Below are positions 1,900-15,151 of a DNA stretch of 15,151 bases, piece after piece. The DNA lies in the NCBI GenBank assembly GCA_964631415.1, contig CAZVZC010000046.1:1-15151 (forward strand), written 5' to 3'. The position numbers and the translations under genes were made by a program. Numbering within the stretch: position 1 is the stretch's first letter; every line of letters starts with the position of its first letter. This stretch comes from an uncultured archaeon. GTDB lineage: Archaea; Asgardarchaeota; Thorarchaeia; Thorarchaeales; Thorarchaeaceae. The notes beneath the pieces were generated by a model, which worked only from the letters and a program-made list of their open reading frames with translations, made no database searches and was not told the DNA's origin.

Positions 1900-2604
1900 T
1901 CACATGTCTGCGTACACGATTCGCTTGGTCCAGAAACGCACAGCATCTGCATCAACCTTCAGGATTTCGTTCAACCGCTCAACCGTGATGTCTCCCTCTC
2001 GGTACACCTTGATGTTGCCAGGCGCACCGGGCTCCACTCCTACTATTGTCGAGTTCAGTCTGCTTTTTGACGGGCCTCCGTCGATGTATAGGTCTACAGA
2101 GCTGCCGAGCTCTTCCATTGCCACGCTGACATCGAATGGGCTAGGCCCACCGTGGAGGTTCGCGCTCGTTCCAACGATTGGCCCTTTGACCTCCTTGGCG
2201 ATAGCCCTTGGAACAGGGTGATCTGGAACTCTGACTGCTATAGAGTTTCTTTTCCCGGAAACCTTCGCAAGGACTGGGTGGCTTGCAGTGACAATGAGTG
2301 TGAGTGCGCCGGGCCAGAATAGCCTGACCAGGATTCTTTCGAGGTCACCGAAGTCGTGATAGGTTTCGACTTGATTATAGTCTGCAAACAACAGCGGCAC
2401 ACCTAGGCCTGGATCCCGTTTCTTTGCGGCAATGAGTCTGGTCATGGCATCCTCTTGTGTCGGATCACAGGCCAGCCCATAGCTGGTGTCTGTGGGATAG
2501 ACGACGAGCCCTCCGGACTTGATGATAGAGGCCGCTCTTTGAACTGCGGTGTCGAAGTCCTGCGCCGAGTCGAGTTTAAGGGTTTCAGTCGGCACTCTGG
2601 TCAC
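1900..2604 (-). CDS. tsaC: L-threonylcarbamoyladenylate synthase, single-domain TsaC/YrdC type
   Basis: VVYPTDTSYGLAC, KKR (KxR), FWPGALT, IAVRVP, GTSAN and STIV motifs. Likely start is GTG 2604 or 2595. The longer 2880 start overlaps the opposite-strand gene. Confidence 0.92.
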   Translation of the reverse strand: MTRVPTETLKLDSAQDFDTAVQRAASIIKSGGLVVYPTDTSYGLACDPTQEDAMTRLIAAKKRDPGLGVPLLFADYNQVETYHDFGDLERILVRLFWPGALTLIVTASHPVLAKVSGKRNSIAVRVPDHPVPRAIAKEVKGPIVGTSANLHGGPSPFDVSVAMEELGSSVDLYIDGGPSKSRLNSTIVGVEPGAPGNIKVYREGDITVERLNEILKVDADAVRFWTKRIVYADM

Positions 2605-2671
2605 TGAATGGGGCTGCTGCAAACACACATATGGCCGTTGCGCTTCACCTTCTCCAAAGGAGGAATTCTCA

Positions 2672-3712
2672 ATCCGCGCAGTGATACTGGCCGCCGGCAG
2701 AGGCACGAGGATGAAGCCTATCACCGACTCTGTGCCGAAGGCGCTTCTTCCTGCTGCAGGCAAGACGCTGGTTGAGCGGCTCATCTCATCATTCCATGCT
2801 GCTGGAGTGACCAGTTTCACGGTCGGCGTTGGCTGGAAGGGCGACATGGTCCGAGAGCATCTTGAGAACTTGTCGGGCACCGACAGGATACAGACTGTTG
2901 ACGTCCCGGACTACTCTCGCGGGCCTCTTCAGACACTGGTGACTGCACTGTCAGAGGTCGAGGATGAAACCTATGTAGTTTCTGCAGTTGACTATGTCGT
3001 CGAACCCGAGTCAATATCCCGAACCGTGACGAATCACCTTCACGGACCCAGCTCACGTGCGATAACTCTGCTACTGGGTCCCTGGAAGCAATCAGGTACA
3101 CCTGTGTTCGCCCAAGAGAATGGACAGGTTGGCGGAATTGGTGAGCATGTTCTGCCATCCGAAAGGATTGGCTGTAGTGCCATGCTGTTGGTTGTCAGCA
3201 GACCCTTTGGTGAAATCTGCCGAAACGCGCTTTCCCGTGGAACGACCAGCGTCCCGCCTGTCGTAAACAGCATGATCTCAGATGGTTTGTCTATACGTTA
3301 CGTCATGACCGAACAAGAATGGTTCGATGTTGATGACATCTCGTCCTTGCTAAACGCCAATCACTACCTCCTGCAGCAGATGACCGCCAGCTCCAGTAGC
3401 CAGTTGCTGGTACCACACGGGTCACGCCTTGCTGCCGGACGGCACATGCGCCACAAACATACCATTGTGCTGGAGGCAGGGGCTGAGCTGGTGGGTCCAG
3501 TACTCATTTCACAACGATGTCGAGTGGGCAAAGGCGCCATCGTAGGTCCTTTCGTGACTATGGATGCAGGGTCTCAAGTGGGCGAGCGCTGCTCGGTGGA
3601 GCGATCAGTGCTCTCCGCGAAGGGGTCTTTGGTTCACAATACTCAGATTAAAGACTCGATCGTATTTGGAACGAGTGTCTACGGGATGGGCTCCGATCAT
3701 GTCGCCGAGTAG
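2672..3712 (+). CDS. Sugar-phosphate nucleotidyltransferase with C-terminal left-handed beta-helix repeats
   Basis: RAVILAAGRGTRMKPITDSVPKALL, WFDVDD...LLNAN and hexapeptide-like repeats (VGKGAIVGPFV, VGERCSVERSV). Start placed at ATC 2672 after AAGGAGG, with GTG 2681 as the alternative. Confidence 0.85.
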   Translation: MRAVILAAGRGTRMKPITDSVPKALLPAAGKTLVERLISSFHAAGVTSFTVGVGWKGDMVREHLENLSGTDRIQTVDVPDYSRGPLQTLVTALSEVEDETYVVSAVDYVVEPESISRTVTNHLHGPSSRAITLLLGPWKQSGTPVFAQENGQVGGIGEHVLPSERIGCSAMLLVVSRPFGEICRNALSRGTTSVPPVVNSMISDGLSIRYVMTEQEWFDVDDISSLLNANHYLLQQMTASSSSQLLVPHGSRLAAGRHMRHKHTIVLEAGAELVGPVLISQRCRVGKGAIVGPFVTMDAGSQVGERCSVERSVLSAKGSLVHNTQIKDSIVFGTSVYGMGSDHVAE

Positions 3713-4295
3713 GTTTCGTGTCAGGTTGGTCTTCAGGAGACCTGTCCTTTTCGTTGCGCACCTGTTCGTAAGAGCCGGTGTGCGTCCTGACACCATCACC
3801 TATCTGTCTCTATTCGTCGCGGTTCTAGCCTGGCTTCTTCTGATGATCTTGCGCATCCCCATAGTCTATGGAATCCTAGTCTTCACTGTGGGATTCTTGG
3901 ACGGGGTTGATGGCGCCGTGGCCAGAGGGGGCGGCACTGCTTCAAACAAGGGTGCCTTCACAGACTCATTTGTCGACAAAGTGTCAGAGGCAGTGATTCT
4001 GCTGGCAATTGGGGCGGCAAACTCTGATGAGTACTTCCTAGGATTGAGCGTCCCCCTGTGGAGCGGTGTCTGCTTGTCTGGTTGGCTGCTCACGAGCTAT
4101 GCTAGGTCCAGAGCAGAGGTCTTGGGTGCAAAAGACCTTGATATCGGGCTCGGAGGGCGATCAGAGCGCCTGCTCATACTATCGGTGTTCTCAGTCTTCG
4201 GTCTACTGCTTTGGGGTTTGTTCGTCGCGACCCTAATAGGGCTTCTCACTGCTGGGTATCGGTATTCAAGCTACAAGTCAGAGATACCCGGCTAG
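3699..4295 (+). CDS. CDP-alcohol phosphatidyltransferase, archaetidylinositol-phosphate synthase/PgsA-like
   Basis: Complete signature DGVDGAVAR-x8-GAFTDSFVD, plus PDTIT, SYARSRAE and GGRSERL, and hydrophobic helices. ATG 3699 overlaps the upstream gene by 14 nt. Confidence 0.92.
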   Translation: MSPSRFRVRLVFRRPVLFVAHLFVRAGVRPDTITYLSLFVAVLAWLLLMILRIPIVYGILVFTVGFLDGVDGAVARGGGTASNKGAFTDSFVDKVSEAVILLAIGAANSDEYFLGLSVPLWSGVCLSGWLLTSYARSRAEVLGAKDLDIGLGGRSERLLILSVFSVFGLLLWGLFVATLIGLLTAGYRYSSYKSEIPG

Positions 4296-4840: not shown

Positions 4841-5845
4841 TTACTCCGTCGCTGTGATCAGGCTGATGGTGTTGCCCACAGCCTGCACGATTTCGGCTTC
4901 GCCATCTCCGTTCACATCACCAAACGCAGCCAACGACTCGACAGACTTCTTCTTCGTCTTGATTGATGCTTCCTGAGTGAGTTGATGTCCGTCATAAGAC
5001 AGAAGCATCACTGTAGAGTCGCCCAGACCGACCATGATGTGTGCCTGCTTGGAGTCCCTGTGGAGTCTGCCTATTCTCACTGAGGTGATAGGTGAAGAAG
5101 CCTTCATGGTGGCCCGAACCTCCAGTCCATTCTGGCCAATCGCAAGCAGATTTAGGTTGATGCCGTCAGACACCGTGATGATGTTGTCATTCCTGCCACC
5201 CGTGACACTTCCAGTTGCCACTAGGTGTACGTCCCCGCCAAGACCCATTCTCGATATTTCATGAAGTCTGTCGTCAGCGTACTGATAGACATAAAGGTGG
5301 CCCGAGTCGTCCCCAAAGACCAGTCTGCTATAGGGTAAATCCTTGCTTCTTAAAGGCTGCATTGAGAAGACCGGTCTGTCTACAACCTTGTGAGCCAGTT
5401 TGTCCAAGCATGCATCAAACCAGCCGTAGCATCTCAGTGCTCGATCATTAGTTGCAACAACGATTTCTGAAGCCTCATCACCAACGACATTCGTCACACA
5501 GACTGCGGTCGGAAGCGTACCCAGCTGAGTGGTGTCCTTGACTGCAAGACTCCCGTCCGAGAGGGAAATCACACGAATGGTGTTATCGAGGCCTCCAACC
5601 ACGAGGTCTGGTATATTGCCGCCCAAGACACTGCCGATTGCGAGGGTCACGATAGGAGGAAGACCACTTGCCTTTACCACCTGAGTCAGTTTCATCTTCT
5701 TGCCAGACTCAAGTTTCAGAATCCTTACGTCTCCTTCTATTGTTGACAGTACGAGATCGCATCGATCACTGTCATCGATGGTTGCCACCTCCAAGGACGT
5801 TATGGCCTCCTTGAATATGAAGTCTGAAATCACCCCGAGATTCAT
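4841..5845 (-). CDS. Seven-bladed FG-GAP-type beta-propeller without signal peptide
   Basis: Seven repeats of about 45-50 aa: IDDSDRCDLVL, GSVLGGNIPDLVVG, NVVGDEASEIVVA, LPYSRLVFGDDSG, GSVTGGRNDNIIT, GRLHRDSKQAHIMVG and GDVNGDGEAEIVQA. Confidence 0.82.
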   Translation of the reverse strand: MNLGVISDFIFKEAITSLEVATIDDSDRCDLVLSTIEGDVRILKLESGKKMKLTQVVKASGLPPIVTLAIGSVLGGNIPDLVVGGLDNTIRVISLSDGSLAVKDTTQLGTLPTAVCVTNVVGDEASEIVVATNDRALRCYGWFDACLDKLAHKVVDRPVFSMQPLRSKDLPYSRLVFGDDSGHLYVYQYADDRLHEISRMGLGGDVHLVATGSVTGGRNDNIITVSDGINLNLLAIGQNGLEVRATMKASSPITSVRIGRLHRDSKQAHIMVGLGDSTVMLLSYDGHQLTQEASIKTKKKSVESLAAFGDVNGDGEAEIVQAVGNTISLITATE

Positions 5846-6005: not shown

Positions 6006-6602
6006 TTGGAGTCCGATATGAACGAGCAGAAGGCTCCCATGTTTCTAAGTCACGGCGATTGGAATGAAACCCCTGAGGGGGTGGCAAGAGAACTACACTC
6101 GTTCATAGATGACTTCCAGTCATTCACACCCGAGTGGTTTGCAGAAGTCAAGTTCCATCTTCTGAAGCAGTCAGGGTTGACCAAGGACACGAGAGATGAT
6201 CTCTGTCGAGTGTCGATTCACGGAGAATACTGTGACAGATGCGAGTCACTGTACAAAGCCAAGAACTGTCTACTGTGGTCACATCTGTTCTCGATGGCCA
6301 AGGCTGTGGTTGATGACCGATCTCCTCCCTGCATCAGACTTGCACTTCGGAAAAACAGCATCAGAACAGTTGCCAGCTTTCTTACCAGTGCAGACCTAAT
6401 CGAGGCACCTTTCTACAGGAGGCGCAGAGCCTCGTCCTGCAGGATGATGGCTCAATGGGGGTATTGTAGACCAGACGAGTACTGTCGTCACATTCCGGAC
6501 AACAACGCCAATCCTCTCCAGTACATCATTGCGCGTGAGAGAGTCAAACTCTCTCGGGCCGTCCGGCCAAGCACAGGCCGGCCTGGCTCCATCACTCCTT
6601 AA
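6006..6602 (+). CDS. Shortened protein with a primase large subunit (PriL) C-terminal Fe-S-like domain
   Basis: SPPCI...ASFL...SSCRMMAQWGYCRPDEYC...NPLQY follows the PriL-CTD pattern PPC...PSC..m...G.C.pd..C...PL.Y with four Cys. Start is TTG 6006 or ATG 6018. Confidence 0.68.
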   Translation: MESDMNEQKAPMFLSHGDWNETPEGVARELHSFIDDFQSFTPEWFAEVKFHLLKQSGLTKDTRDDLCRVSIHGEYCDRCESLYKAKNCLLWSHLFSMAKAVVDDRSPPCIRLALRKNSIRTVASFLTSADLIEAPFYRRRRASSCRMMAQWGYCRPDEYCRHIPDNNANPLQYIIARERVKLSRAVRPSTGRPGSITP

Positions 6603-6640
6603 GTAGACATGAAAGCATAGCGCGAGTAGGTTTCAGGTCC

Positions 6641-8194
6641 ATGCTCGCAAACAAGAGGAGATGCTCCGAGAATGAGGAATCCGTGTACGATAATGTGGAC
6701 ACGGAGATGGTACGACTCATTCGTTTGACGGGGATGCGTGAGTCTGAACTGGCTCGTGCTAGACAGAAGAAGGATGAAACATGGCGGAAAGTCAATGGAA
6801 TACTCGCTGAACACGCGCGTCTGGTGGCTATTGGTGACAGGCACACGCGTCAGAAGGCAATCCAAGACCCGGTCCATGGCGCAATACTCCTGGACCCTTG
6901 GGAGCTCGACCTAGTTTCGAGTTGGGAGATGCTCAGGCTCCGGTTTGTCAAGCAGCTGGGTCCTGCACACATAGTCTATCCCGGTGCAACGCACACAAGG
7001 TTTGAGCATTGTCTGGGAACAGATCACTTGGTCCAGAAGTGCATCCGTGTCGTCAATTACTGTGATGATCCTAGCCACGCTTGCTTCAAGCCTTTCTCGG
7101 AACTGCTCAGCGACTATCAACAGAAGATCTTCAGGGCAGCTGCATTACTGCATGATGTGGGGCACCCGCCGACTTCTCATACAATTGAGTTTCCCATCAA
7201 GTGCTGGGTCGGACTCAGCCACACGGACTTGGGTCAGTTCCTCATCATGCACAGCGGCTTGACTGAAATCTTGGAGGCGAGTGGCATTGAGCCAAAGGTG
7301 GTCGTTGACGTTCTCAAGCGGAGGTCGACTGACCCAATCCTCCAGCTCCTGTCAGACTTCTTAGATTCTCCTCTAGACTTGGACAAGACGGACTACCTGA
7401 TTCGTGATGCGCATTTCAGTGGTGTCCAACTCGGGGTGTTCCCTGCCGAACGCGTGATGTTGACAAACCGCGTCGTAAAGGACTCAGAAGGTCGATACAT
7501 CAGGGCCTTCATGCTGAAAGCGCTCCATTCTCTTGAAGCGCTGATTCTCAGCCGCAACTGGATGTTCTCGGATTTGTATCTTCATCATGCAGTGAGGGTT
7601 GCCGAAGCACTCACGTCCAAGGCCACATACTTTAGGATGAAGGAAGAAGCCCTGACCAAGAATGAGTGCATTGGTCTATTCACCAGAATGACGGATGGAG
7701 ACCTCTATCGTTGGCTGGCAGAGTCAAAAACAGATTTCGTCCGTGAGTATGCTGCGAGGATTAGGTACCGACGGCTGTTCAAGGTGGCAATGTCACGGCC
7801 TATAGCCGCGTTTGAGGCGGGCTCTAGAAAGCGGCTGCATGAGATGCAGGTCGACATCAACAAGCTGCTTGAGGCCGAACTCCAACTGAATGACGACCCG
7901 GGCAAGGCAATCATAGACATCGTCAACCCGGAGCTTGGTTTTAGATTCCTGTCCACAATCCCGCTACTCATCGGTGGCGAGGACTCAAAACTTGAAATCG
8001 TGAGCCTGAAGGACGCCGATGAAGGAAAGCCCCTTGTGCAGGCGCTCAGTCAGCAGCGGTTCACAATACCCTCTGTTAGAGTTTACTCGGATCCAGACAT
8101 CGCAGATGACGTTCGGAAGCGGTTCGAGAGAGAGTTTCCAGCGGCTGCCAAGGCAAGAGAGTCGCAGACAGACTTCGACATGACTGAGTGCTAG
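6641..8194 (+). CDS. HD-domain phosphohydrolase, SAMHD1-like dNTP triphosphohydrolase family
   Basis: IQDPVHG, RLRFVKQLG, YPGATHTRFEH, LLHDVGHPPTSH, LDLDKTDYLIRD and LYLHH motifs. The true start may be later, for example ATG 6707. Confidence 0.9.
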   Translation: MLANKRRCSENEESVYDNVDTEMVRLIRLTGMRESELARARQKKDETWRKVNGILAEHARLVAIGDRHTRQKAIQDPVHGAILLDPWELDLVSSWEMLRLRFVKQLGPAHIVYPGATHTRFEHCLGTDHLVQKCIRVVNYCDDPSHACFKPFSELLSDYQQKIFRAAALLHDVGHPPTSHTIEFPIKCWVGLSHTDLGQFLIMHSGLTEILEASGIEPKVVVDVLKRRSTDPILQLLSDFLDSPLDLDKTDYLIRDAHFSGVQLGVFPAERVMLTNRVVKDSEGRYIRAFMLKALHSLEALILSRNWMFSDLYLHHAVRVAEALTSKATYFRMKEEALTKNECIGLFTRMTDGDLYRWLAESKTDFVREYAARIRYRRLFKVAMSRPIAAFEAGSRKRLHEMQVDINKLLEAELQLNDDPGKAIIDIVNPELGFRFLSTIPLLIGGEDSKLEIVSLKDADEGKPLVQALSQQRFTIPSVRVYSDPDIADDVRKRFEREFPAAAKARESQTDFDMTEC

Positions 8195-8241
8195 ACGTAA
8201 CACTTGAGCACTAGAACTCCACCATGGGGCGATGTGCACAC

Positions 8242-8940
8242 TCACACAGGTGGAGTCTCCAGATGATGTATCAGTTTCTTGACCTCATTCAGTCCGAAGT
8301 CAACGTAGATGATTCCGTACACTGACTCAAGCAGTGTTCCCTTGATGTGATCTATTTCCGACTTCGTGGAACTGGGTGGATCAAAGTGAATACGATGCTC
8401 ATAGAGCCCCCACTGATCGCAGAGCCAAGCAAGATGCTCATTGCTCACGAGCTCCGCTTTGCGTTGAGTGAGAAGCCCTGCATTGGAGGGGCTCGGCCGC
8501 CAGAGATGGTGAAGCACAGCTAAAGAGATGGCAGCATCACCTACCAGCGCAAGAACCCTGGCCATGTCGCTCAGCGACGCAAGGTCAGTGAATGCCTCTG
8601 GCTTGACGGACACGCTTGCGGTGGCCCGATAGTGTGTTTCAATCTCAAGGAACAGGTTCCTGGTGCTCGGCTGAAACATCGCGACGGAGAGCAACTCATT
8701 TCCGACTATCGGGAGCCCAAGTACGCCTTCGAGCCGCGGCGCCAGCGATTCATGAACCTTGGACAATGAGGTGATTACGCCGTCCAGCCCGAGTATCCAG
8801 CGATCAATCTTTCCCCGCAGTCGTGTGTTCTCATACGGCGTGAGCGCTTGGGTCTTTCTGACAATCTCCAGCAGCGCTTGTAGTTTTTCATCAATTCCTA
8901 CGGGGTTCCATGCAAGCTGTTTTTCATGGTGAGAATTCAT
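8242..8940 (-). CDS. Ribonuclease III-domain protein lacking a dsRBD
   Basis: LEGVLG...ELLSVAMFQPS (N-terminal helices), LALVGDAAI (signature), GLLTQRKAELVSNEHLA and GTLLESVYGIIYVDFG. The protein ends right after the nuclease domain. Confidence 0.85.
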   Translation of the reverse strand: MNSHHEKQLAWNPVGIDEKLQALLEIVRKTQALTPYENTRLRGKIDRWILGLDGVITSLSKVHESLAPRLEGVLGLPIVGNELLSVAMFQPSTRNLFLEIETHYRATASVSVKPEAFTDLASLSDMARVLALVGDAAISLAVLHHLWRPSPSNAGLLTQRKAELVSNEHLAWLCDQWGLYEHRIHFDPPSSTKSEIDHIKGTLLESVYGIIYVDFGLNEVKKLIHHLETPPV

Positions 8941-9734
8941 ATCATGCCCTCTCCGGGTACGATATGAGTTATGGCAGTCCTCTCGGCCTCATAGTGCTGG
9001 ACGTAGATGGCTGTGAGGGAGTACTGCATTGCAAGCAGACTAAGAGCCATGAGAATCAATGGCGGTCCTGTAGACAGGTTCACGATTGGCTCGGTCTGTG
9101 GCAGTATTTCGAGGATTATCTTCTCAATATGCGAGTAGGTTGCCATGAGGTCTCCCCGTATGCGCCCCTCGTCGTAGCCCACCACCTTCACTGGCAGCTC
9201 ATGCCAAGTAGTCTGCCACTTCTTCTCAATCCCTTCCGGCACGTACCTGTCGACGTTCTTGGAAACTCCCCTTGCGAAGCGTTCCTGTTCAACTACCATG
9301 CGAAGGAATGCGAAGTTGAAAGTCGCCTCCTTGGTGAGCCACATGACGAGAGGACGGGCCTCTTCGGGGTGTGCAATAGATGTGAAGAGAGTCTTCGGTC
9401 TAGTAACTTTCAGTGCCCTTCTCACAGACTGGATAGCCCTCGGATGCAGTTCGAATATGCGTTGTTGGGAGTCCTTCCTGCTCACGATTATCCCGAGATC
9501 CTCAAGTTGCTTTGTGTTGAAGTAGAGCTTGGGGTCTGTGACCTTGTAGTCTTCGGGCTTGACATTCCTCACACCCGACTGGACTGCCTCAGCAACCATG
9601 TTCTTTCTGATGCTCTCTCTCAGCTCGGCACCTGTCTTTGCTCCACCCTCCAGCTGGTCGAGTATGACCTTGCGAGCTACGACGCTCTCGACCTCCCTTC
9701 TGACGATGGTGTCAATCGTGTTGGAGAACATCAT
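8937..9734 (-). CDS. Winged-helix transcription regulator with C-terminal CARF-like Rossmann domain
   Basis: N-terminal ILDQLEGGAKTGAEL...LYFNTKQLEDLGII...RIFEL is ArsR/PadR-like. C-terminal KTLFTSI...DLMATYSHIEKII...PIVNLSTGPPLILMAL...AIYV follows CARF secondary structure. ATGA overlap with the RNase III gene. Confidence 0.7.
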   Translation of the reverse strand: MMFSNTIDTIVRREVESVVARKVILDQLEGGAKTGAELRESIRKNMVAEAVQSGVRNVKPEDYKVTDPKLYFNTKQLEDLGIIVSRKDSQQRIFELHPRAIQSVRRALKVTRPKTLFTSIAHPEEARPLVMWLTKEATFNFAFLRMVVEQERFARGVSKNVDRYVPEGIEKKWQTTWHELPVKVVGYDEGRIRGDLMATYSHIEKIILEILPQTEPIVNLSTGPPLILMALSLLAMQYSLTAIYVQHYEAERTAITHIVPGEGMI

Positions 9735-9765
9735 GTGTGTTCGAGTAAGAATGTTTCATTGACGA

Positions 9766-9775
9766 CATATATATG
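9766..9775 (-). promoter_or_regulatory. Putative TATA box of the wHTH-CARF/RNase III operon
   Basis: Palindromic CATATATATG about 32-40 nt upstream of ATG 9734, consistent with a short-leader archaeal transcript. Confidence 0.55.
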
Positions 9776-10003
9776 GTATGTATGTTTGTCCAGAGAAGGT
9801 TCTGTCTAACGGAAGGACATACGGAGGGAATATCATTCGGTCCGTTGCTCGCAAGTAGGACAACAGTGCCCCATCACGCCCTCCTAGAGGTCATCTCAGA
9901 GGGCCAAGCTCGCTCGCCCTTATCGACAAGAGAGGTCTGCATATACGATATACATAGGTAATGTAGTTCTTTGTCTGAAATGGCGATTTTTCGTGCCTTA
10001 TAC

Positions 10004-10019
10004 CGTGAAGGCTTAAATA
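10004..10019 (+). promoter_or_regulatory. Putative BRE/TATA promoter of actin
   Basis: Purine-rich GTGAAGG followed by CTTAAATA (10012-10019), about 95 nt upstream of ATG 10115. Confidence 0.5.
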
Positions 10020-10114
10020 CGCGGCTCAGGGACTTACTGCTTGAACAGGGTTGCGGACACCATGCCAAAGACTCTGACACAACGACAAGCAAGAAAAAGA
10101 GGACCGAGTACAAA

Positions 10115-11254
10115 ATGGCTGAAGACGAGTTCGCTGGAACCAAGCCAGTTGTCATAGACAACGGCACTGGCTTGAGCAAGAATGGGTATGCTGGCGAGGA
10201 CCAACCGCGAAGTGTCTGGCCTACGTTGATCGGCTATCCACGTTACGAGTCAATCATGACTGATGTCGATCACTACACCCGTGACTACTACATCGGGGAA
10301 GAGGCCATCAACCTGCGAGGTGTCCTGCGTCTTGTATATCCAATCACGCACGGTGTGATTGATGACTGGGACGCCATCGAGAAGATCTGGTCGTACACAT
10401 TCTACAACTACCTGAAGGTGGACCCAAGCGAGAACCCGGTGCTCCTCACAGAGGCTCCATTCAACCCACGTGAGAACAGGGAACGAATGGCATCGGTGAT
10501 GTTCGAGAACTTCGGAGTCCCAGCAGTCTATGTTGCGACTCAGGCAGTCCTGTCACTGTACGCATCCGGTAGGACAACCGGTCTGGTCATTGACTCAGGC
10601 GACGGTGTGACACACATAGTCCCCATTTACGAGGGCTTCGCTATCACACACGCCATCAGGAGGATTGACCTAGCTGGTCGTGACATCACCGAGTACCTAC
10701 GCAGGCTGCTCAGGCAGAGGGGTTACTCCTTTGTGAGCGGTGCTGAGAAAGAGATTGTGAGGGACATCAAGGAGAAGCTCTGCTACGTCGCACTCGACCC
10801 CGAGCGCGAGAGGACAGTGGCTGACAAGGCCGGTGTCGACAAGCCCTACATGCTGCCAGACGGTGAAGTGATCACTGTAGGCGCTGAGAGGTTCCAAGCA
10901 CCGGAGCTGTTCTTCAACCCAAGCGCGATCGGTCTTGACACCTCCCCACTCGACGACCACATTGTCGAGTCAATCAAGGCCTGTGATGTGGACCTGCGAC
11001 GTGACCTGTACGCAAACATAGTGCTGTCCGGTGGTTCCACAATGTTCCCCGGACTCAAGGAGCGACTCCACAAGGAGATCACCGAGCTGGTCCCAGAGAA
11101 CATCGAAGTGCGGATCATCGCACCACCCGAGCGACAGTACTCAGTGTGGATAGGCGGCAGCATCCTCGCATCACTCAAGACATTCCAGAAGATGTGGGTG
11201 TCCAAGAAAGAGTTTGAGGAAGCAGGCCCAGAAGTCATCCACCGCTGCATCTAA
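10115..11254 (+). CDS. Actin (Asgard/Lokiactin-type, 379 aa)
   Basis: [84 protein letters not shown] and C-terminal HRCI align with eukaryotic actin along the full length. Start set at the ATG encoding MAEDEF. Confidence 0.98.
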
Positions 11255-14197: not shown

Positions 14198-14531
14198 CGG
14201 CGCTACCTCCTCTAGACGATGGATCCTTGTTCGCTTTGAACCCACTTTAACTTAAGCAATCCCGCTGCATCATGCAGGTCGCTGTCCGAAATATCCGGGC
14301 AGTCCATCGAAGCAAGAAGCACATCTCTCTGTTCCTTGAATGCTTGCACCATGCTGCATCTTGGTTGACAATGGCCTGTTTCTTCTTCGAACTAATACGT
14401 CTTATTAGTAGCGTTCCTGCAACCGCATGGGCCCGGTTCTAACCTAGAGGAAACGAAGAGACAACTCTCTTCTGACTACTACACTAGGAACCCGAGGTGA
14501 CATATCCAAGACCGATCAAGTGATAGAAACA

Positions 14532-15151
14532 ATGTCAGATACCCGCCACTTAGCCCTACTCCTTTCTCCTCTCTGGAGGATTCTTGCCCAGCGTCTGGCC
14601 GGGAGATGTAAGGAGTGCGGACAAGAAAGACTGCTCTCGGCTTTCGAGATATACTCAGGAGGTCGACGTCTTTCCTGTAAGAGCTGCTCACTGACGTCGA
14701 AACCCATGATGCCCCTGATTCGTCTTCTGTTCTTCAGGCTGGGCATCAGACACTACACGGCAAGGTCCCTGCTGAGCGATTCAACTGTTCGCAAATGCAT
14801 GCTCAGTGTCGTGAAGGGAATCGCGAGCTTCGGAACAAGGTTTCCGCAGCCGACCGGTGCACCAATAACCATTGTATGGAACGTCACCAACAGGTGCAAT
14901 CTGAACTGCATCCATTGCCATCAAAACTCGTCGCCCGCCTGCTCCGACCCAGAACTCACGACATCTGATGCGTTCAAGGTGATTCATAACATGAGCGAGG
15001 CGGGGGTTGTGACACTGACCTTCTCGGGAGGCGAACCACTAGTCCGCAGTGATCTCTGCGATCTCATCAAAAGAGCTGACGATAGCGGTATGCTGTGCAC
15101 AATCGCATCCAACGGTACTCTAATGACTGAACAGACTGTGCGAAGGCTCAA
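14532..15151 (+). CDS. Radical SAM protein, 5' part (runs off the window)
   Basis: Manual translation gives MSDTRHLALLLSPLWRILAQRLAGRCKECG...SCKSC...VKGIASFGTRFPQPTGAPITIVWNVTNRCNLNCIHC (CxxxCxxC at 14895-14918), FSGGEPL and IASNGT. No stop occurs from 14448 to the window end. Confidence 0.92.
   Translation, partial: MSDTRHLALLLSPLWRILAQRLAGRCKECGQERLLSAFEIYSGGRRLSCKSCSLTSKPMMPLIRLLFFRLGIRHYTARSLLSDSTVRKCMLSVVKGIASFGTRFPQPTGAPITIVWNVTNRCNLNCIHCHQNSSPACSDPELTTSDAFKVIHNMSEAGVVTLTFSGGEPLVRSDLCDLIKRADDSGMLCTIASNGTLMTEQTVRRL

Follow-up and report, generated by a model that had tools for sequence, protein, structure and literature searches.

An actin-linked putative CARF regulator with a downstream RNase III gene, and a converging pair encoding a Cys-rich protein and an HD hydrolase, in the core genome of a Thorarchaeota family

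We analysed four adjacent genes on a 15,151-nucleotide (nt) stretch of DNA from an Asgard archaeon (hereafter the window, meaning the whole stretch that was analysed) and consider it probable that they belong, in one copy each, to the vertically inherited core genome of a single Thorarchaeota family, arranged as two separate converging units and not as one system. The window is contig C46 of a 2.16-Mb metagenome-assembled genome (MAG) that is 85% complete. The forward strand encodes P1, a small Cys-rich protein (6006..6602, 198 amino acids), and P2, an HD phosphohydrolase of the SAMHD1/EF1143 family (6641..8194, 517 amino acids), while the reverse strand encodes P4, a winged helix-turn-helix (wHTH) protein with a CARF domain (8937..9734, 265 amino acids), and P3, an RNase III-domain protein (8242..8940, 232 amino acids). 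A preliminary description of this DNA had given the same open reading frames (ORFs), and all of them are present, with a gap of 38 nt between P1 and P2 (6603-6640), 47 nt between the convergent stops of P2 and P3 (8195-8241), and an ATGA overlap of P4 with P3, ATGATATGAATTC on the reverse strand, in which the P4 stop TGA (8939-8937) overlaps the P3 ATG (8940-8938). It had also placed the DNA in an Asgard archaeon, which agrees with the source names of the orthologues, leading to the Thorarchaeota, and with the actin gene that adjoins the block (10115..11254, forward strand; Pfam Actin, 2.2e-133) as the head-to-head neighbour of P4. Its domain calls stood for the HD hydrolase, the RNase III and the wHTH-CARF protein, while the term "PriL-like" for P1 is only moderately backed.

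Side by side and in this arrangement, the four genes were seen in about 22 of 24 genomes from family f1, the GTDB family of the window's genome (Thorarchaeota), which was sampled in 16 genera. The adjacency, for which chance had been allowed, is thus not accidental within this lineage. Conserved synteny in f1 is not specific to the four genes, however, because nine flanking genes are equally collinear. In 20 of 20 f1 loci, 13 genes follow each other in the order PRT-Cgi121-u112-Sua5-NTP transferase-CDP-OH transferase-u138-FG-GAP-P1-P2-P3-P4-actin (PRT, phosphoribosyltransferase; NTP, nucleoside triphosphate; u112 and u138 are ORFs of 112 and 138 amino acids), so that the neighbours are KEOPS/N6-threonylcarbamoyladenosine (t6A) genes, lipid-synthesis genes and actin. 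A single copy per genome was found for P1 in 24 of 24, for P3 in 43 of 43 and for P4 in 42 of 43 f1 genomes. The genes are thus single-copy, near-universal and fixed in position among KEOPS, lipid and actin genes, and therefore not defence-island-like; they occur in nearly every f1 genome at a fixed site, and are neither patchy nor co-transferred.

Outside f1, the four genes were never linked among the Asgard families searched, each profile search covering a sample of 201 Asgard genomes. Full-length P4 homologues occur mainly in families f1, f2, f3, f6, f7, f8, f12, f13, f15, f19 and f21, and RNase III (PF00636) in f1, f2, f5, f9, f14, f16, f22, f24, f25 and f26, two sets that are largely complementary. 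Where both were matched outside f1, the P4 homologue and the RNase III gene lie on different contigs (C35 and C49 in genome G025 of the sister family). Even within f1 the four genes do not always stay together. The HD gene P2 is the only gene lost anywhere in the 13-gene stretch (20 loci): in genome G018 (L015:1346-2630) it is cleanly deleted and P1 converges straight on P3, while in G014 (L011:8649-10430) it is a stop-riddled remnant and a CitMHS/TrkA-C transporter gene stands instead. P2 is dispensable, having been lost twice while P1, P3 and P4 remain.

This distribution bears directly on the proposal of the preliminary description that the block is a CRISPR-independent antiviral or nucleotide-stress module, which did not find support: the genes are vertically inherited core genes in a collinear housekeeping block, and a comparison of synteny across the sampled Asgard genomes showed the four linked in f1 only. 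In a Thorarchaeota-specific form of this proposal, P4 would sense a nucleotide signal, P3 would cut viral or antisense double-stranded RNA (dsRNA), P2 would deplete deoxynucleoside triphosphates (dNTPs) and P1 would sense primed or 5'-triphosphate nucleic acid. We regard such a four-gene surveillance module as very unlikely. It would explain why a tightly packed layout is kept in about 22 of 24 f1 genomes and why P1, P2 and P3 are lineage-specific in a single insertion gap beside P4, and an action on nucleotides or nucleic acids is plausible for each of the four products; yet the entire 13-gene neighbourhood is equally collinear, the genes are f1-universal in a housekeeping context, no linkage was seen in the Asgard families searched beyond f1, P2 was lost twice without the others, and the sequence box found beside P4 (described below) is absent from the P1 promoter.

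Scans for defence genes and signal sources point the same way. PADLOC returned no system, and its matches were limited to the CARF_m5 profile for P4 and a match of P2 to the dGTPase defence profile PDLC02374 (E = 0.0029, 15 bits, 64 residues only) that is not significant. Profile scans of the window proteins found no cas genes, in agreement with the preliminary description. Among signal sources, searches of this genome, which is 85% complete, gave no match to TIGR02577 and TIGR02578 (Cmr2, Csm1) or to SMODS and revealed no cyclase; in f1 as a whole Cas10 is patchy, the Cmr2 type being present in 9 of 61 genomes, versus P4 in 42 of 43. The flanking genes had no PADLOC match except that of a truncated radical-SAM gene (14520-15149, running off the contig end) to pVip (1.3e-17). 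Viperin was rejected as its identity, the full-length orthologue (L001:12123-13571) being an AhbD/NirJ-like radical SAM/SPASM enzyme.

The spacing of the genes suggests how the two units are organised. The distance between P4 and P3 was measured at 18 f1 loci and does not exceed 13 nt at 16 of them, while the other two involve doubtful ORF calls; judged by this spacing P4-P3 is a putative tight operon specific to f1. P1 and P2 share a strand, and at loci where neither is disrupted their spacer measures 38 to 132 nt; they may form an operon for an Fe-S protein and an HD hydrolase. The convergent stops of P2 and P3 are -32 to +28 nt apart in orthologous loci. Reading both strands of the 47-nt spacer in the window showed no oligo-T tract. 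The nearest run of at least four T is at 8884 downstream of P2 and at 7987 downstream of P3. Because the spacer is without T tracts and the stops abut or overlap in relatives, the P2 and P3 transcripts probably overlap at their 3' ends.

These spacings also weigh on the opposite explanation, in which none of the four genes is functionally related, P4 and P3 included, and their adjacency merely reflects slow rearrangement in f1. The 13-gene block does hold plainly unrelated functions (KEOPS subunits, lipid enzymes, actin) and neither gene pair is kept outside f1, but the 4-nt overlap or very short gaps between P4 and P3 in 16 of 18 loci point to co-translation, and the shared strand and the short spacers of P1 and P2 are likewise retained. 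Pure hitch-hiking of all four genes therefore has little probability in our view.

The partner with which P4 is most deeply linked is actin. In at least 10 Asgard families (f1, f2, f3, f6, f8, f12, f13, f15, f19 and f21) the P4 homologue and the main actin gene are divergently transcribed neighbours, f7 being an exception in which the P4 homologue has no adjacent actin gene. The CARF-actin linkage is thus far deeper than any linkage among the four genes. In several of those families the CDP-OH transferase and NTP transferase genes lie directly on the other side of P4, with no P1, P2 or P3 between. This pair of NTP transferase and CDP-alcohol phosphatidyltransferase genes (window 2549-4295; L025, L026, L028, L032 and L033) stays beside the CARF and actin genes, so that the CARF-actin pair is only part of the block conserved from ancient times.

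P4 matches the PADLOC profile CARF_m5 (PDLC01987) with an E value of 1.1e-18 over residues 64-247 (profile positions 29-188 of 195); CARF_m5 is a minor CARF clade, known here from this PADLOC-DB profile. P4 had no Pfam match, and an hmmsearch of its profile against PDB sequences gave nothing useful. In the AlphaFold2 (AF2) model of P4 (predicted local distance difference test (pLDDT) 88.8, predicted template modelling score (pTM) 0.84), an ArsR/PadR-like winged helix (residues ~7-108) precedes a Rossmann-like CARF domain (~114-259). Foldseek searches of PDB with this model retrieved the CARF domains of Cam1, Csm6, Card1, Can2 and Cdn1 (E 1e-5 to 1e-3, probability 1.00) and also SqrR/PadR winged helices. 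Besides, a conserved TS past the first strand and a [DN]L[ST]xGPP loop resemble CARF motifs. At the level of the predicted structure, P4 is confirmed as a wHTH-CARF protein.

Among known proteins of this kind, Csa3 likewise joins a CARF sensor to a winged helix, and like Csa3, P4 is expected to be a ligand-responsive transcription factor. P4 is not Csa3, however: the PADLOC Csa3 profile reaches only E = 0.015, on the wHTH part, the wHTH precedes the CARF domain in P4 whereas Csa3 has the reverse order, and no cas genes are nearby. The sensor fold is also common to the type III cyclic oligoadenylate (cOA) effectors (Csm6/Csx1, Can1/2, Card1 and Cam1), and a nuclease gene is co-encoded with P4. 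In contrast to those effectors, where a HEPN or PD-D/ExK domain is fused, the nuclease is a separate RNase III protein, a signal synthase was found neither linked to P4 nor elsewhere in the genome, and P4 has the distribution of a core gene and not of an accessory one. Literature searches yielded no paper on CARF_m5, on CARF proteins with actin in Asgard archaea, or on CARF proteins with RNase III.

The divergent intergenic region between P4 and actin (9735..10114), characterised by k-mer conservation over 21 family loci, contains two copies of a box ATAYATA-N4-ATGTA (9767-9782 and 9950-9965), one ~35-45 nt upstream of P4 and the other ~45 nt upstream of the TATA-like element of actin. The k-mer conservation also marks a transcription factor B recognition element (BRE)/TATA-like element of the actin gene, GGCTTAAATA, around 10012-10019, and a conserved GAGGACCGA stands ~15 nt ahead of the actin ATG. 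Exact matches in the 2.16-Mb assembly are limited to these two boxes, a test that is partly circular, the pattern having been derived from these sites; a search of the window, including the region upstream of P1, gave no further copy. Related AT-rich boxes occur at equivalent places in other f1 members. We regard ATAYATA-N4-ATGTA as a candidate operator of P4.

P3 is recognised by the Ribonuclease_3 profile (PF00636, 7.4e-13, residues 129-216) and by PF14622 (2.1e-9). No match to dsrm was obtained, and the protein stops few residues past the catalytic domain. At its N-terminus it carries a helical extension of ~70 amino acids and an insert ahead of the signature motif, ~125 residues in all. 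Invariant in 18 orthologues are FQPST, G134-D135-A136, VSN, RIHFDP, E195, H198 and KGT-L-E205. Of the four acidic active-site residues of the E. coli enzyme (E41, D45, D114 and E117), P3 retains just two, D45 as D135 and E117 as E205; in every one of the 18 orthologues Ala takes the place of E41 and Thr that of D114. The Rnc of the sister family keeps E and D at these positions. P3 reaches only 36.9 bits against TIGR02191, versus a cut-off of 166.25. PF00636 gave one match per f1 genome, and P3 is the sole RNase III found in the window's genome.

[quoted passage not shown] Mini-III (MrnC) has a reduced set of acidic residues, in which P3 may resemble it, and like P3 it is without a dsRBD; unlike Mini-III, which consists of the ~140-residue catalytic domain alone, P3 carries the ~125 extra N-terminal residues. 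The family profile matched the solved Mini-III structure (4oun) weakly (E = 0.077). The best matches among solved proteins were to human Drosha (E = 5.7e-10 with the single sequence and 4.7e-14 with the profile), bacterial RNase III reaching 2.8e-7 at best. We do not read these matches as a sign of kinship between Drosha and P3, both RNase III domains of Drosha adding to its score.

Other RNase III genes of Asgard archaea have a different setting. A preprint on Asgard Argonautes describes genes for Rnc with a dsRBD that adjoin asAgo and a helicase, and these encode another form of RNase III than P3. In the sister-family genome G025, a canonical Rnc with a dsRBD (L035:5167-5838) is encoded 28 nt downstream of an Lhr-type DEAD/DEAH helicase (L035:2308-5139), which is a pairing of Dicer-type domains. 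A GTPase gene, and not Rnc, comes after the Lhr orthologue in the window's genome.

The close coupling of P4 and P3 could also mean that the two proteins form a split effector, in which the ligand of the P4 CARF domain switches the RNase III activity of P3 in a complex, in trans, as in the CARF-HEPN proteins Csm6/Csx1, any role of P4 in transcription being secondary. The ATGA coupling kept across f1, the loss of the dsRBD together with the gain of a ~70-residue helical extension that might dock a partner, and the likeness of the P4 CARF fold to those of Cam1, Csm6 and Card1, which bind cOA, are all in line with this explanation. On the other hand, 10 other Asgard families have P4 with actin and without an adjacent RNase III gene, so the ancestral function of P4 is independent of P3; the winged helix of P4 is complete, and the region of its own promoter contains repeated boxes. 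A prediction of the P4-P3 complex from family alignments scored 0.00, which is uninformative either way. Overall, we judge a split effector to be unlikely.

Under the reading we favour, in which the four genes form two separate units, the reverse-strand unit would consist of P4 followed by P3. P4 would be a ligand-sensing transcription factor of the homodimer type, with wHTH and CARF domains, that most likely recognises the box repeated within the spacer it shares with actin, and tunes actin and its own operon as a repressor or an activator. Its ligand would be a small nucleotide-like molecule and not a product of type III CRISPR. In the ancestor of f1, the dsRBD-less P3 would have come directly downstream of P4 and become translationally coupled to it, so that P3 dosage would be tied to the P4 promoter and P3 would be made in a fixed ratio with P4. 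Because P3 is the sole RNase III found in f1 genomes, it probably serves in the general processing of dsRNA or structured RNA, or acts on antisense RNA.

In the forward-strand unit, P2 is the best conserved of the four proteins, with a mean column identity of 71% over 17 orthologues. It matches HD_assoc_2 (PF19276, 2.9e-18) and HD (PF01966, 4.5e-5) in Pfam, and its nearest PDB sequences are Aq_1910 (2hek, 1.7e-32), EF1143 (2o6i, 3.6e-29) and SAMHD1 (~4e-20). The motifs RFEH (120-123), HD (171-172), GH (174-175), SH (179-180), D246/D248/D251 and RD (255-256) are invariant in the 17 orthologues, and include H123, H171, D172, H175, H180, D251 and D256. Like SAMHD1, EF1143 and Aq_1910, P2 thus combines HD with HD_assoc_2 and has all metal-binding and catalytic His/Asp motifs intact; unlike SAMHD1, it has no SAM domain and bears an additional, family-specific N-terminal arm of ~70 amino acids with an invariant TG. 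P2 is a Thorarchaeota-specific paralogue, and two further copies of ~435 amino acids are encoded elsewhere in each genome. It scored only 17 bits against TIGR01353, for which the cut-off is 152. These features suggest that P2 is probably an intact HD (d)NTP triphosphohydrolase paralogue, which would trim (d)NTP pools.

For P1, the other member of this unit, ATG 6018 is a more likely start than TTG 6006, its orthologues aligning from there. Scans of Pfam, NCBIfam and PADLOC gave no match, PF04104 included, an hmmsearch of the P1 profile against PDB sequences gave nothing useful, and Foldseek of the AF2 model (pLDDT 84.8) against PDB gave no match. A search of 1.84 billion representative proteins gave no more than 16 relatives. 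Eight Cys residues are invariant across 19 orthologues, in two groups of four. The first group (C67, C76, C79 and C88) belongs to the winged-helix-like N-terminal part, of which residues 16-81 resemble winged-helix folds (VIA-align, Z 5.8). The second group (C109, in a PPC motif, C145, C154 and C160) belongs to a C-terminal part that resembles a cut-down C-terminal domain (CTD) of the primase subunit PriL. Residues 91-182 matched the Fe-S domain of human p58C (5dqo) weakly (VIA-align, Z 4.4, root-mean-square deviation 4.5, 87 aligned, rank 22). With hhalign, P1 aligned to an Asgard PriL-CTD profile over 41 columns that take in the last three Cys and PLxY (E = 5.9e-5, probability 65%), and in the alignment to the genome's own single PriL all four Cys, including that of PPC, are matched (E = 0.12).

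Considering these alignments, the C-terminal part of P1 is likely, though not proven, to be a reduced PriL-CTD-like Fe-S domain. P1 keeps four Cys in the PriL order, the PPC[IM] motif and the C-x8-C...C...PLxY tail, but only ~35 residues are left of the helical core that separates the first Cys from the second. It is not a whole PriL: it has 198 amino acids, with an unrelated winged-helix-like N-terminus, versus 350-450 amino acids with a PriS-binding domain in PriL, and in place of that N-terminal domain it is fused to a winged-helix/Cys4 module. A normal PriL of 380 amino acids is encoded elsewhere in the window's genome (G000:C32). PriX of Sulfolobus, a stand-alone PriL-CTD derivative that is without the cluster, is a further protein with which P1 can be compared. 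We propose that P1 would be a small nucleic-acid-binding protein, combining a winged-helix/Cys4 part with a reduced PriL-CTD-like [4Fe-4S] part, and possibly an accessory or regulator of P2.

The wider relatives of P1 have other contexts. The N-terminal winged-helix/Cys module (residues ~8-86) also starts metagenome proteins of ~712-740 amino acids (P0135-P0137; L067) that contain a Walker-A NTPase region, one of them with a weak VapE/D5-like match, as in replication proteins of mobile elements. Distant P1 relatives of 156-169 amino acids adjoin or are near an archaeal histone gene on three contigs (L068:956-1774, L069:318-1136 and L022:3986-6139), which hints at a chromatin or DNA-related role of the P1 family. 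None of the distant relatives outside f1 adjoins HD genes.

Several observations weigh against separating the four genes into two units. P1, P2 and P3 are all specific to f1 and stand together in the single gap between P4 and the FG-GAP gene, so they could have been inserted jointly and share some function. The four genes are tightly packed across 16 genera, with convergent stops that abut or overlap. The lack of terminator-like T tracts between P2 and P3 would allow the two units to be coupled through antisense dsRNA, the substrate of P3. Finally, many of the genomes covered by the profile searches are incomplete MAGs.

The comparison of families suggests how the block may have been assembled. 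In the ancestral order, the CARF gene would have come after the NTP transferase and CDP-OH transferase genes and converged on them, with actin on its other side in divergent orientation. The taxonomic order that holds f1 and f2 would then have gained the FG-GAP gene downstream of P4, and f1 would subsequently have gained P3, P2 and P1 in the gap between FG-GAP and P4. In the sister family, the FG-GAP gene stands directly after P4 on the same strand. This conserved gene encodes an FG-GAP/BBS-like cytoplasmic propeller of seven blades (window 4841-5845; L031:6023-7000).

What survives of the proposed module is a putative f1-specific operon of a CARF regulator and an RNase III, added to the ancient pairing of CARF with actin, and, apart from it, the pair for a putative Fe-S protein and an HD hydrolase. 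A set of genes with a eukaryotic and immune-like appearance (SAMHD1-like, RNase III, CARF) is better understood here as core-genome neighbours, and should not be counted as Asgard defence. We found no paper describing the protein forms of P1, P3 and P4 in the literature searched. P1 would represent a miniature PriL-CTD-like Fe-S protein, and the sole RNase III of these Thorarchaeota, with its reduced active site, new N-terminal arm and lack of a dsRBD, is likewise an undescribed form. There is a slim chance that the Thorarchaeota rewired the actin-linked CARF sensor further, so that it is co-translated with P3 and perhaps gates it, with the P1-P2 operon coupled to it through antisense dsRNA cut by P3; if so, a single nucleotide-like signal would govern the expression of cytoskeleton genes, the processing of RNA and the supply of dNTPs. 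As a wHTH-CARF regulator that is independent of CRISPR and has actin as its deep partner, P4 is a candidate switch for archaeal actin expression.

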